From the NCBI GenBank assembly GCA_009843915.1, contig VYCM01000146.1, forward strand, positions 31,332-95,331: a DNA stretch of 64,000 nt. Reading direction: 5' to 3'. The stretch's first letter is position 1. Every line of letters begins with the position of its first letter. The notes below the pieces were generated by a model. It worked only from the letters and a program-made list of their open reading frames with translations. It had not been told where the DNA came from and made no database searches. Positions 31,796 through 37,981 of the stretch are shown here, piece by piece. Source of the DNA: Acidimicrobiaceae bacterium. Lineage in GTDB: Bacteria; Actinomycetota; Acidimicrobiia; Acidimicrobiales; Aldehydirespiratoraceae. The position numbers were made by a program, and so were the translations under genes.

Positions 31796-33328
31796 TCAGC
31801 CGATCTCGTCGGGCATCTCGGCCTTGCGTCGGGCCACGTAGTCGCGCAGTTCGGCGTCCACCGCGTCGTCGATGGGGGGCGGCTCGTAGTCGGCCAGCAG
31901 TTGCTTCCAGCGGGCGTTGGCCCGCTGTCCGGCTGAGAGCGAGCCCTCCTCGGACCACTGCTCATAGCTGGCCGCGTCGGAGATGTCCGACCGCCAGAAG
32001 GCGGTCTCGAAGTTGGCCAGGGTGTGAGGGTTGCCCAGGAAGTGGTCGCCGTGGGCGTTGGTGCGGAACGCCTCCATGGCTTGGCCGTTCTCGCTGACGT
32101 CGACTCCCCGGGCCCAGATTTCCATGGCGCCCAGCTGGTCGGCGTCCAGGATCAGCTTCTCATAGCCCAGCGCCAGCCCTCCCTCCTGCCAGCCCGCGGC
32201 GTGCAGCACGAAATTCACCCCCGCCTGCATCGTGGGCAGCAGGGTGTGGGCCGACTCGTAGGCGGCCTGCGCGTCGGGCAGCTTCGAGGAAGTGAACTGA
32301 CCGCCTGAGCGGAACGGCACACCGACCCGGCGGGCCAGCGACGCCATCACATGGATGGCTTGGCCGGCCTCGGGCGTGCCGAAGGTGGGCGCCCCGGTGG
32401 CCATCGACATCGAGGAGGCGAACGTGCCGAACACGACCGGAGCGCCGGGCCGCACCAGCTGCAAGTAGGCCATGCCGGACAGCGCTTCGGCCAGGGCTTG
32501 TGCGGCCAGACCGGCCACCGTCACCGGTGACATCGCCCCGGCCAGGATGAACGGGCTCATGATGCAGGCCTGGTTGGCTCGGGCGTAGGTGGTTGCTGCG
32601 CCCAACATGGGGGCGTCCCAGCGCATCGGGGATGAGACGTTGATCAGCGAGGTCATCACCGTGCGGTCGGCGAGATCTCCGCCGAAGGCGATCCGGGCCA
32701 TCTCGACGGAGTCCGCGGCCCGTTCGGCCGCGGTCACCGAGCCCATGAAGGGCTTGTCGCTGTAACGCAGGTGGGCGTACACCATGTCGAGGTGGCGCTT
32801 GTTCACCGGCACGTCCACCGGCTCGCACACCGTGCCCCCGCTGTGGTGCAGCTGGGGCAGGGCATAGGCGAGCTTCACCACGTTGCAGAAGTCCTCCAGC
32901 GTGGCGTAGCGGCGGCCCCGGTCGAGGTCCATGACGAAGGGTGATCCGTAGTTGGGGGCGAAGACGGTGGCGTCGCCCCCGACCATGACGTTGCGGGCGG
33001 GATTGCGGGCGTGCTGGGTGTAGGCGGCAGGGGCGTTGTCCTGCACGATCTGGCGGCACAGGCCGGGCGGGCACTTCACGAGTTCCCCGTCGATGTCGGC
33101 CCCGGCGGCCCGCCACAGCTCCAGGGCCTCCGGGAAGTCCTGGAAGGCGATGCCGACCTCGGACAGGATGGTCTCGGCGTTGCGTTCGATCTGCTCCAGA
33201 CCCTCGTCATCGACTATGTCCACCGGCGGCGTCCGGCGGACCAGGTACGGCGCTGACTCGGTCGACGCCGCCCGCGCCGCCCTTCTTCCTGCCCGGCCGC
33301 CGCCCCTCCGCCGCGTTGTCTCGCTCAT
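31796..33328 (-). CDS. MttB superfamily methyltransferase, non-pyrrolysine type (second paralog; last gene of the corrinoid operon)
   Basis: 510 aa uninterrupted. It is collinear with the 15825-17360 paralog (SPFILAGAMSPVTVAG, GAPTFGTPE, HAAGWQEGGL, HFLGNPHT). Confidence 0.85.
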   Translation of the reverse strand: MSETTRRRGGGRAGRRAARAASTESAPYLVRRTPPVDIVDDEGLEQIERNAETILSEVGIAFQDFPEALELWRAAGADIDGELVKCPPGLCRQIVQDNAPAAYTQHARNPARNVMVGGDATVFAPNYGSPFVMDLDRGRRYATLEDFCNVVKLAYALPQLHHSGGTVCEPVDVPVNKRHLDMVYAHLRYSDKPFMGSVTAAERAADSVEMARIAFGGDLADRTVMTSLINVSSPMRWDAPMLGAATTYARANQACIMSPFILAGAMSPVTVAGLAAQALAEALSGMAYLQLVRPGAPVVFGTFASSMSMATGAPTFGTPEAGQAIHVMASLARRVGVPFRSGGQFTSSKLPDAQAAYESAHTLLPTMQAGVNFVLHAAGWQEGGLALGYEKLILDADQLGAMEIWARGVDVSENGQAMEAFRTNAHGDHFLGNPHTLANFETAFWRSDISDAASYEQWSEEGSLSAGQRANARWKQLLADYEPPPIDDAVDAELRDYVARRKAEMPDEIG

Positions 33329-33390
33329 GTTGGCTCGTTCATGGTCTTGCTGTCTCCGGATCGTGAATTCGGGCGATTGTCGAGCGATGT

Positions 33391-36636: not shown

Positions 36637-37265
36637 GCCGCCTCTGAGGTGTCCGCGCTGGCCAGCTCCACGATCCGGCCCTCGAGTCCGCCGATGCCGG
36701 TGACGATCCGCTCGCAACGAAGGCCGAGACGGGCGGCGGCCTGCTCCGCGGCGCGGGCCAGGCGGTCATCGTCGGCCTGGGCGAGGTGGACGACCCGGGT
36801 GTAGTTGCCGAAGTACGCCTCAAGGAGTTCCGGATGCTGGGAGATGCCCAACCCCTCCATGATCAAGCGATCGAAATGCCGCACCAGGTAGTCGGTGAGG
36901 TAGAAGGTGCCCGGCTCGACATCCTGCAGGCCGGCGAAGGCGTCGGGGCCGGTGTAGAGCTCGTAGCAGTGGGCGCCCGGCAGCCGCTCGACCCCCTCCT
37001 CGGCGCACACCCGGTCGAGCAGCCCGCCCGTGCCGCAGTCCATGTAGCCCACGATGATCGTTCTGTAGGCGCCGCGAGCCTTGGCGACCCGGACCCGCCG
37101 ACGGACGGCGTCGGGGATCCGCTCGGGGCGGTTGTGCATTATCGCGGGCAGGCACTCCACCTCGAGGTGCTTGCTGCCGTTGAGGGCTGCTATCTCGCGC
37201 AGTTCGCGGACCAGCGCGCCACAGCCGATGACAAGAACTTTCGAAGGGTGCGGCGGGGCCGTCAT
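36633..37265 (-). CDS. DUF1638 domain protein
   Basis: 210 aa. KVLVIGCGAL...VGYMDCGTGG...YLTDYLVRHFD matches the DUF1638 pattern as I recall it. ATGA overlaps at both ends. Confidence 0.6.
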   Translation of the reverse strand: MTAPPHPSKVLVIGCGALVRELREIAALNGSKHLEVECLPAIMHNRPERIPDAVRRRVRVAKARGAYRTIIVGYMDCGTGGLLDRVCAEEGVERLPGAHCYELYTGPDAFAGLQDVEPGTFYLTDYLVRHFDRLIMEGLGISQHPELLEAYFGNYTRVVHLAQADDDRLARAAEQAAARLGLRCERIVTGIGGLEGRIVELASADTSEAA

Positions 37266-37981
37266 CCGGCGGCCCGGCGGGCCGTCACGAGGGTCTTGGC
37301 CGTCTCGGAGGCGATGGCGGCGTCGCGGCAGTAGGCGTCGGCGCCGATGGCCGATCCGAACTCCTCGTTGAGGGGCGCCCCGCCGACGAGGATGATGAAG
37401 TCGTCGCGTATGCCCTTCTCCACGAGGGTGTCGATCACCACCTTCATGTAGGGCATGGTGGTGGTGAGCAGGGCCGACATTCCCAGGATGTCGGGCTTGT
37501 GCTCGTCGAGGGCGGCCAGGAACTCCTCGGCGTCGGTGTTGATGCCGAGGTCGAACACCTCGAAGCCGGCTCCCTCCAGCATCATCGCCACCAGGTTCTT
37601 GCCGATGTCGTGGATGTCGCCCTTGACCGTGCCGATCACGACGCTGCCGATGGGCTCGGCGCCCGTCTCGGCCAGCAGCGGACGCAGGATGGCCATGCCG
37701 GCCTTCATGGCGTTGGCGGCCAGCAGGACCTCGGGCACGAACAGGATCCCGTCGCGGAAGTCGATGCCGACGATGCGCATGCCCTCGACCAGCGCGTCGT
37801 TCAGAACCTTGTCGGCCGACCATCCCCGGCCCAGCAGGATGTTGGTGCCCTCGGTGATTTCGTCGGCCAGACCGTCATAGAGGTCGTCGTGCATCTGGAC
37901 CGTGAGTTCCTCGTCGTCGAGGCTCGCGAGATCGATGTCATCGTCGGCCGTGTCGGGTCCGGAAGCAGGGATGTCAGTCAT
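37262..37981 (-). CDS. Cobalamin-binding corrinoid protein (methyltransferase cognate)
   Basis: B12-binding motif D-x-H-x2-G (GDIHDIGKN), SALLTTT, and GGAP. An N-terminal helical cap domain is present. ATG 37981 has GGAGGG upstream. Confidence 0.85.
   Translation of the reverse strand: MTDIPASGPDTADDDIDLASLDDEELTVQMHDDLYDGLADEITEGTNILLGRGWSADKVLNDALVEGMRIVGIDFRDGILFVPEVLLAANAMKAGMAILRPLLAETGAEPIGSVVIGTVKGDIHDIGKNLVAMMLEGAGFEVFDLGINTDAEEFLAALDEHKPDILGMSALLTTTMPYMKVVIDTLVEKGIRDDFIILVGGAPLNEEFGSAIGADAYCRDAAIASETAKTLVTARRAAG

Follow-up and report, generated by a model that had tools for sequence, protein, structure and literature searches.

What is a complete corrinoid-dependent methyl-transfer operon doing in the genome of an actinobacterium with otherwise aerobic-looking genes, and which substrate would it serve? 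The question is raised by six genes on a 64,000-nucleotide stretch of contig VYCM01000146.1 (assembly GCA_009843915.1, an Acidimicrobiaceae bacterium placed in the Aldehydirespiratoraceae), referred to here as the window. According to start-codon analysis and domain scans, these genes lie on the minus strand and fill exactly positions 31796-37981. The answer argued here, and given with fairly good confidence, is that the operon would encode MtgBCD, the aerobic cobalamin-dependent demethylase of quaternary amines, in the form it takes in Acidimicrobiia, equipped with its own reactivation machinery. The genes are as follows, preceded by the region from which they are presumably transcribed:

37982-38155, no strand: intergenic region between the divergent genes mtgC (minus) and leuS (plus), the presumed operon promoter region
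37262-37981, minus strand: mtgC-like corrinoid protein, 239 aa, with PF02607 and PF02310
36633-37265, minus strand: DUF1638 protein, 210 aa (PF07796, 82.9 bits, E 3e-23)
36259-36636, minus strand: small PF13769 “Virulence_fact” protein, 125 aa (61 bits, E 1.4e-16)
35372-36262, minus strand: mtgD-like pterin-binding methyltransferase, 296 aa (PF00809; NF005719)
33391-35367, minus strand: RACo/RamA-like activase, 658 aa (Fer2 + RACo_linker + Raco_middle + RACo_C_ter)
31796-33328, minus strand: MttB1, an mtgB-like MttB of the non-pyrrolysine (non-Pyl) type, 510 aa (PF06253, 725 bits)

The G+C content of the window is about 70% throughout, so that long spurious open reading frames (ORFs) are common. 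All six products nonetheless carry the expected domains and exceed the curated cutoffs where one applies. The original prediction, made from the letters of the sequence, had placed the outer limits of the operon and named its six genes, and both are borne out by the gene calls and domain scans. It had also described the genes as chained by ATGA/GTGA overlaps. This is true of three of the five junctions (ATGA at 37262-37265 and at 36633-36636, GTGA at 36259-36262), while the last two are gaps of 4 nt (mtgD/activase) and 62 nt (activase/mttB). The idea of a complete corrinoid-dependent methyl-transfer unit is supported at the level of protein domains, which were confirmed for every part. MttB1 is predicted to act as a non-Pyl substrate:corrinoid methyltransferase; as foreseen, it has no in-frame TAG, the frame being open throughout with a phenylalanine aligned to the pyrrolysine position. 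The pterin-binding methyltransferase, with PF00809 and with NF005719 at 356.5 bits against a cutoff of 259, would pass the methyl group to tetrahydrofolate (THF). The four RACo Pfam domains above cutoff, together with a cysteine motif, point to an ATP-dependent reductive activase. Identity with the Pyl-dependent MttB was rejected given the lack of an in-frame UAG, the phenylalanine in the Pyl column and a TIGR02369 score of 251 bits against a cutoff of 525.

A one-genome-per-species scan retrieved 270 relatives of MttB1, and the best 80 of these were used for locus comparisons, in which gene order was mapped by tblastn of the six products. The order mtgC-DUF1638-PF13769-mtgD-ramA-mttB recurs in about 60 of these 80 species-level Acidimicrobiia loci, and the arrangement is therefore not due to chance. 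The leuS gene is often the divergent upstream neighbor. MtgC, MtgD and MttB keep 75-99% identity across the related loci, and DUF1638, PF13769 and the activase fall to 45-70% with all three intact; DUF1638 was detected in 59 and PF13769 in 66-67 of the 80. All 80 relatives come from uncultured Acidimicrobiia or Actinomycetota, including “Candidatus Aldehydirespirator”, “Ca. Poriferisocius” and bins that, to judge from their names, come from sponges, and the lineage is represented by metagenome-assembled genomes alone. One paper regards Aldehydiraspiratoraceae (placeholder UBA11606) as a clade with a sponge-symbiont lineage among its members (PMC11706023). The host is a marine, probably sponge-associated actinobacterium.

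Systems of the same kind have already been described in marine Proteobacteria, and the operon is accordingly less novel than the original prediction assumed. In Phaeobacter inhibens, methionine is made by a three-part split methionine synthase whose reactivation needs a RamA-like [2Fe-2S]/DUF4445 protein and DUF1638; mutants in either gene are methionine auxotrophs, and the genes co-occur across Alphaproteobacteria (Price et al. 2018, PMC5764234). In Ruegeria pomeroyi DSS-3, MtgC and MtgD are indispensable both for growth on glycine betaine and for methionine synthesis, with growth on glycine betaine abolished in mtgC and mtgD knockouts (Mausz et al. 2025, PNAS, PMC12478193). The same study found PF06253 proteins (MtgB), RamA and DUF1638 to be induced on N-osmolytes, and reported mtg genes co-located in other Proteobacteria, including Sinorhizobium meliloti, where the cluster was read as a glycine betaine demethylase. 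P. inhibens no longer grows on glycine betaine once both mtgB1 and gbcAB have been deleted (bioRxiv 10.64898/2025.12.19.695462).

Proteobacterial clusters were retrieved through the small PF13769 protein. In Azoarcus KH32C the genes run corrinoid-DUF1638-PF13769-MTHFR_C-MTHFR-MtgD-ASKHA, where MTHFR denotes methylenetetrahydrofolate reductase, and are flanked by glycine betaine ABC transporter genes, electron transfer flavoprotein (ETF) genes and an FAD dehydrogenase. The clusters of S. meliloti and Shinella have bmt followed further along by ferredoxin, MttB, corrinoid protein and DUF1638 genes, and then, after further genes, by PF13769, MTHFR_C, MTHFR, the methyltransferase and the ASKHA activase. 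The identities across phyla are high: 77% for MtgC to both the S. meliloti and Azoarcus proteins, 63-70% for MtgD, 51-55% for the activase, 46-54% for DUF1638 and 46-49% for PF13769. Because of these values, sequence comparison identifies the window operon as an ortholog of the aerobic MtgBCD + RamA + DUF1638 system. Four features that define the aerobic MtgBCD type were looked for and all four were found, namely a non-Pyl PF06253 MtgB (MttB1), a stand-alone MtgC of proteobacterial type with a B12 cap and a B12-binding domain, an MtgD, and a RamA-like activase along with DUF1638, both in the operon.

Between mtgD and the activase gene, S. meliloti and Shinella carry a conserved hypothetical gene of 112 aa with no Pfam match (locus L081, 15046-15384, plus strand; locus L084, 12056-12307, plus strand), which has no counterpart in the window operon.

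The aerobic MtgBCD(E) system of Ruegeria and Phaeobacter consists of the same five components as the window operon (MtgB, MtgC, MtgD, activase and DUF1638). An aerobic setting and a link to choline and glycine betaine catabolism are also common to both, and the local order corrinoid-DUF1638-PF13769-...-MtgD-activase is shared with Azoarcus and S. meliloti. Three things set the window operon apart from the described proteobacterial systems. The first is the host phylum, Actinomycetota (Acidimicrobiia), a group shown by Mausz et al. only as 5% of TARA mtgC reads. The second is compaction: a single operon unites all parts, mtgB among them, and in Ruegeria and Phaeobacter these genes are dispersed. 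The third is the absence of the MTHFR_C/MetF2 pair between PF13769 and mtgD; there is no mtgE nearby either.

The corrinoid protein has the cofactor motif DxHxxG in the form DIHDIG at residue 122, within GDIHDIGKN, and the SxL motif at residue 169. From these motifs, MtgC may be taken as the methyl carrier, cycling between Co(I) and CH3-Co(III). Its best NCBIfam match is corrin_MtgC_2, and it falls below the cutoffs of both anaerobic NCBIfam MtgC models (208 bits against 370; 165 against 310) and of the MetH model. The 77% identity of MtgC between the window (37262-37981) and the Alpha- and Betaproteobacteria (L081, 8042-8740; L082, 8651-9358) may indicate that the module spread horizontally or that it is under very strong constraint. 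The G+C content of the operon (0.69-0.71) is no different from that of its surroundings, so any transfer would be old.

The identity of the substrate depends on MttB1, which was compared with three solved structures and with the S. meliloti ortholog by pairwise identity and active-site residues. Among entries of the Protein Data Bank (PDB), the closest is 4YYC (E 1.8e-194), the MttB of the S. meliloti cluster, with 58.5-59.5% identity. The second-closest solved structure is the MtgB of Desulfitobacterium hafniense (DhMtgB; 2QNE and 9YCE, E of about 1e-118), at only 41.7% identity in a common alignment, which is not a close relationship. In the same alignment MttB1 is 39.8% identical to the second MttB of the window, MttB2, and 24% identical to the Pyl-MttB of Methanosarcina barkeri (PDB 7XCL), with which it shares the PF06253 superfamily and the fold but not the UAG codon.

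In DhMtgB, Y97 and F356 are the cation-pi partners of the substrate and R312 and H348 the partners of its carboxylate; the Y97/F356 aromatic pair is not conserved in MtcB, MtpB, MthB or MtyB, while R312, and less so H348, is also kept in enzymes for other acidic quaternary amines (PMC13080624). Three of these four residues are present in MttB1, as Tyr127 (Y97), Arg340 (R312) and His376 (H348). F356 is replaced by Gly384. Four residues before this glycine, at the position of I352, MttB1 has Trp380, and we infer that this tryptophan could take the place of F356 as a cation-pi residue. The same Tyr/Arg/His and Trp/Gly pattern is found in S. meliloti 4YYC, and the five active-site columns are identical in 80 of 80 MttB1 orthologs.

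The systems of D. hafniense (MtgB, DSY3156) and Methanolobus vulcani, whose MtgB is 65% identical to DhMtgB (PMC6855144), thus share with the window a TIM-barrel enzyme of the MttB superfamily and the Y97/R312/H348 residues. They also follow the same logic of a substrate methyltransferase, a corrinoid protein, a second methyltransferase (MtgA) and an ATP-dependent activase. No DUF1638 or PF13769 partners are described in the cited accounts of these anaerobic systems, whereas the window operon has both. Narrow membership of the D. hafniense-type MtgB/MtgC group was rejected, as F356 is absent, the identity of MttB1 is low and the MtgC models stay below cutoff.

The genes around the operon provide a further indication of its substrate. 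The features concerned are:

15825-17360, plus strand: MttB2, a second non-Pyl MttB (PF06253, 626 bits), without its own corrinoid protein
17393-18694, plus strand: Rieske oxygenase alpha subunit, 32 nt downstream of MttB2
18695-21277, plus strand: DAO+FAO_M+GCV_T protein of the dimethylglycine/sarcosine dehydrogenase type, 860 aa
21321-21857, minus strand: GFA-family (glutathione-dependent formaldehyde-activating) protein (PF04828)
21845-23554, plus strand: BetA choline dehydrogenase (TIGR01810, 797 bits against a cutoff of 732)
23809-25257, plus strand: MetY O-acetylhomoserine sulfhydrylase (NF006004, 739 bits against a cutoff of 636)

The Rieske oxygenase and the 860-aa dehydrogenase would carry out demethylation further down the pathway. 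BetA, the 860-aa dehydrogenase and the GFA protein are all encoded within 8-13 kb of the operon, and BetA, MetY and a major facilitator superfamily (MFS) transporter recur beside it in distant relatives. The aerobic context proposed earlier is borne out by the Rieske oxygenase, BetA and the DAO+GCV_T dehydrogenase, and the second MttB paralog mentioned at that time is indeed present.

Taken together, the retained Tyr/Arg/His residues, the positional orthology with 4YYC and the betA and dimethylglycine-dehydrogenase-like neighbors favor glycine betaine, which is judged a reasonably probable substrate of MttB1 on these sequence features. The assignment stays unproven, the MtgB motif being incomplete in MttB1 and the comparison covering the three solved structures and the S. 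meliloti ortholog. According to the original prediction the substrate could not be read from the sequence. It is partly readable, through the 4YYC orthology, three of four active-site residues and the link to betA.

The following scheme is proposed. BetA would convert choline to glycine betaine, which would be bound by MttB1, in the role of MtgB, within the TIM-barrel pocket. The carboxylate would be held by Arg340 and His376, and the trimethylammonium group by Tyr127 and probably Trp380. One N-methyl group would then be transferred to the Co(I) of the His-on corrinoid protein MtgC, with release of dimethylglycine, and MtgD would move the methyl from CH3-Co(III)-MtgC to THF, forming 5-methyl-THF. 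The dimethylglycine or sarcosine could be taken on toward glycine by the DAO+GCV_T dehydrogenase, with formaldehyde handled by the GFA-family protein. Accidental oxidation of Co(I) to Co(II), expected to be frequent in an aerobe, would be reversed by the RACo/RamA-type activase at the expense of ATP, with DUF1638 and PF13769 working alongside it as one reactivation module. MttB2, located 14 kb away, probably feeds a second substrate into the MtgC/MtgD core.

The activase has all four domains of the RACo architecture above their Pfam cutoffs, and its [2Fe-2S] cysteines follow the pattern Cys39-x5-Cys45-x2-Cys48...Cys82. The Fer2-linker-middle-ASKHA arrangement is shared with RACo/AcsV of acetogens and RamA of methanogens, the presumed chemistry being the ATP-driven reduction of Co(II) to Co(I). 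The window protein scores below the cutoffs of the AcsV (326 against 800) and RamA (118 against 500) models. It differs in its presumed client, a MetH-like corrinoid protein and not CoFeSP, and in being accompanied by DUF1638 and PF13769.

These two companions had been regarded as unassigned. This is not wholly true of DUF1638, given the methionine auxotrophy that follows its loss in P. inhibens and its co-occurrence with the RamA-like protein. Residues C15, C38, C77, C100, H44 and H99 of DUF1638 are invariant from Acidimicrobiia to Proteobacteria, which hints at a metal site. For the small protein the statement held, as a literature search by Pfam accession and name returned nothing relevant on PF13769 and the gene goes unmentioned in the Ruegeria and Phaeobacter MtgBCD papers; it is domain fusions that now tie this family to the activase. 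Its conserved core spans approximately residues 19-114, with the motifs WRDIPAQV, RF..A.D..AM and Y..W invariant in Acidimicrobiia and Proteobacteria. Sequence searches of the PDB with DUF1638 and PF13769 gave matches at chance level only. Their AlphaFold2 models (mean pLDDT 83.5 and 80.3, respectively) found no PDB entry at E <= 0.001 in Foldseek, with generic Rossmann- or flavodoxin-like similarities for DUF1638 and nothing credible for PF13769.

A search of 1.84 billion representative proteins turned up 559 clusters with PF13769, in most of which the domain makes up a protein of 100-150 aa by itself. In some Hyphomicrobiales, PF13769 is fused to the N-terminus of RACo. On a plasmid of Terrarubrum flagellatum (NZ_CP091854.1; locus L083, 8992-11274), a 760-aa protein combines PF13769 with Fer2, RACo_linker, Raco_middle and RACo_C_ter, and its gene comes after those of a B12-binding protein and DUF1638. 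Among the 120 best homologues of this protein, the PF13769::RACo fusion occurs in at least 22 clusters (at 90% identity), with lengths of 755-790 aa, identities of 59-100% and NCBI, JGI, ENA and Logan sources. Further fusion loci are L086 (8001-10268) and L087 (2867-5173), with PF13769 in frame at the N-terminus of a complete RACo-type activase. DUF1638 precedes the fusion gene in the contexts examined (L083, L086 and L087/L088). The 1.84-billion-protein search also yielded another PF13769+RACo protein and one DUF1638+PF13769 fusion. Assembly artefacts were considered and rejected, since the 22 clusters are diverged, come from several sources and include one isolate plasmid, with all junctions in frame; PF13769::RACo is a maintained architecture. 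The Prokaryotic Genome Annotation Pipeline (PGAP) names the Terrarubrum fusion protein “virulence factor”. This name is almost certainly misleading for the whole PF13769 family.

It may be postulated that corrinoid reactivation in aerobic MtgC-type systems is typically the work of a three-part machine made up of DUF1638, PF13769 and the RACo-type activase, a proposal to which we give an even chance. The case for joint action comes from synteny, the fusions and the published DUF1638 phenotype, and the three are treated as a single module because PF13769 is found fused to the activase and, once, to DUF1638. In this arrangement PF13769 would be a partner or detachable N-terminal module of the activase and might, for instance, dock DUF1638 or the corrinoid protein. 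The partner DUF1638 could contain a metal or an Fe-S cluster and serve, for instance, as the point where electrons enter or as protection of the cofactor in air. PF13769 is the new element: this small protein has the look of a B12-reactivation component that had so far gone unnoticed.

Several points weigh against the operon being a glycine betaine demethylase of the MtgBCD type with its own reactivation module. One is the distance of MttB1 from DhMtgB together with the replacement of F356 by Gly384. Two related loci keep PF13769 with DUF1638 lost (L020, 5416-6521; L048, 5913-6934), only about 30-60 nt separating mtgC from PF13769. In another (L065, 448-5370), mtgC-mtgD-mttB is followed directly by betA, with no activase, DUF1638 or PF13769 between. 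The reactivation genes are therefore not obligatory in cis. Among transporters, the window showed only the MFS transporter and an ABC system with a family-5 solute-binding protein, and no canonical glycine betaine transporter such as BCCT or ProU. The 64 kb also contain no MTHFR, mtgE (PF02574) or metH and no gene for cobalamin biosynthesis or uptake, so that they show neither what becomes of methyl-THF nor where B12 comes from. Homologs of MTHFR, MTHFR_C, formyltransferase and mtgE were absent as well from the 10-kb flanks on either side of the 80 related loci. Finally, a search of the whole window against Rfam gave no riboswitch, for cobalamin or otherwise; riboswitch control of gbcAB has been reported in Phaeobacter and was not seen here.

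A first alternative overlaps partly with the proposal made above. The core could be mainly anabolic, a split cobalamin-dependent methionine synthase with its MtgE encoded elsewhere and with MttB1 feeding in betaine methyls. MtgC, MtgD, the RamA-like protein and DUF1638 are needed to make methionine in P. inhibens and R. pomeroyi (PMC5764234, PMC12478193), the homocysteine synthase MetY is a recurrent neighbor of the operon, and at L087 DUF1638 and PF13769::RACo stand with an S-methyl_trans (MtgE-like) gene and an MTTB gene, beside one for a dimethylglycine-dehydrogenase-like protein. The window itself lacks a PF02574 homocysteine methyltransferase, its core is co-transcribed with the MttB gene and not with mtgE, and the surrounding genes (BetA, dimethylglycine-dehydrogenase-like, GFA) are catabolic. 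A chiefly anabolic role is thus conceivable, on the doubtful side.

The same machinery could instead act on another MttB1 substrate, such as proline betaine, carnitine, gamma-butyrobetaine, choline or phosphocholine, or some other methylated amine from sponges. The lost F356 and the low identity to DhMtgB leave room for this, as MttB paralogs at 30-50% identity differ in substrate and even MtcB and MtyB, 53% identical, overlap only partially (PMC8604678). The conserved arginine and histidine are compatible with other acidic quaternary amines (PMC13080624), and no dedicated glycine betaine transporter adjoins the operon. On the other side, the tyrosine equivalent to Y97 is invariant in MttB1 orthologs but not conserved in MtcB, MtpB, MthB and MtyB (PMC13080624). 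MttB1 is the positional ortholog of the S. meliloti MttB beside mtgC, for which the glycine betaine reading was given (PMC12478193), and betA and the dimethylglycine-dehydrogenase-like gene recur as neighbors. A different substrate is consequently considered unlikely.

That the operon is an inactive relic or serves in anoxia only, Co(I) corrinoid chemistry being incompatible with aerobic life, is highly improbable: corrinoid methyltransferases other than MetH have historically been tied to anaerobes and the window does hold a molybdopterin oxidoreductase/4Fe-4S/NrfD cluster, but the six frames are intact under strong purifying selection in about 60 species, and in Ruegeria and Phaeobacter the homologous system is functional under strictly aerobic culture (PMC12478193).

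The cluster just mentioned lies at 47203-51592 on the plus strand, with the molybdopterin oxidoreductase (a 907-aa ORF), a 4Fe-4S dicluster protein and an NrfD-type membrane subunit in a row. It is a Psr/ACIII-like respiratory complex, unrelated to the operon.

MttB2 differs from MttB1 in having alanine in place of Y97, and R312, H348 and the tryptophan at position 352 are kept. It comes without a dedicated corrinoid protein and probably draws on the same MtgC/MtgD/activase core as MttB1. In one Acidimicrobiia sub-lineage (L021-L025, approximately 3200-4700, plus strand), a third, distant MttB paralog of 26-30% identity is located directly upstream of mtgC and is itself preceded by a dimethylglycine-dehydrogenase-like gene. 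The core there stands between two different MttB genes, which fits a hub in which one corrinoid core serves several substrate modules.

MttB2 and the Rieske oxygenase place a cobalamin-dependent and an oxygen-dependent demethylase side by side. The Rieske protein is weakly GbcA-like and was rejected as a GbcA equivalog, at 142 bits against a cutoff of 670. The GFA gene sits between the dimethylglycine-dehydrogenase-like gene and betA, and in 14 related loci its counterpart has betA or the MFS gene close by. This recurrence is consistent with formaldehyde release in oxidative demethylation. MetY is followed by a 267-aa alpha/beta hydrolase (the pair spans 23809-26068, plus strand), and this pair adjoins the mtg operon in 27-28 related loci. 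The adjacency is intriguing in view of the methionine synthase role of MtgC and MtgD in Rhodobacterales; it could equally reflect inherited synteny.

At the far end of the operon, a 144-aa ORF with no Pfam match and a modest coding signal (31342-31776, plus strand; GC3 0.76) occupies most of the 493-nt space from an ABC permease gene to the convergent end of mttB. Upstream, no sigma-70-like consensus and no Rfam element were found in 37982-38155. Promoter and terminator consensus scans of 31200-38300 gave no matches, such a scan being uninformative for an actinobacterium of 70% G+C. No tRNA genes were found in the window.

If the assignment is correct, aerobic B12-dependent glycine betaine demethylation would extend from marine Proteobacteria to Acidimicrobiia. 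Many of the related loci come from sponge-associated bins, and the implication is that these actinobacteria may use betaine of host or algal origin and be dependent on cobalamin. No version found here is more compact than the single operon, which has all parts, substrate methyltransferase and activase included, in 6.2 kb and suits heterologous reconstitution. DUF1638 and PF13769 are proposed to work with the ATP-dependent activase in keeping cobalamin as Co(I) in oxygen-exposed cells. Should the three-part reactivation machine be real, two orphan Pfam families would gain a function and a misleading family name would be put right.

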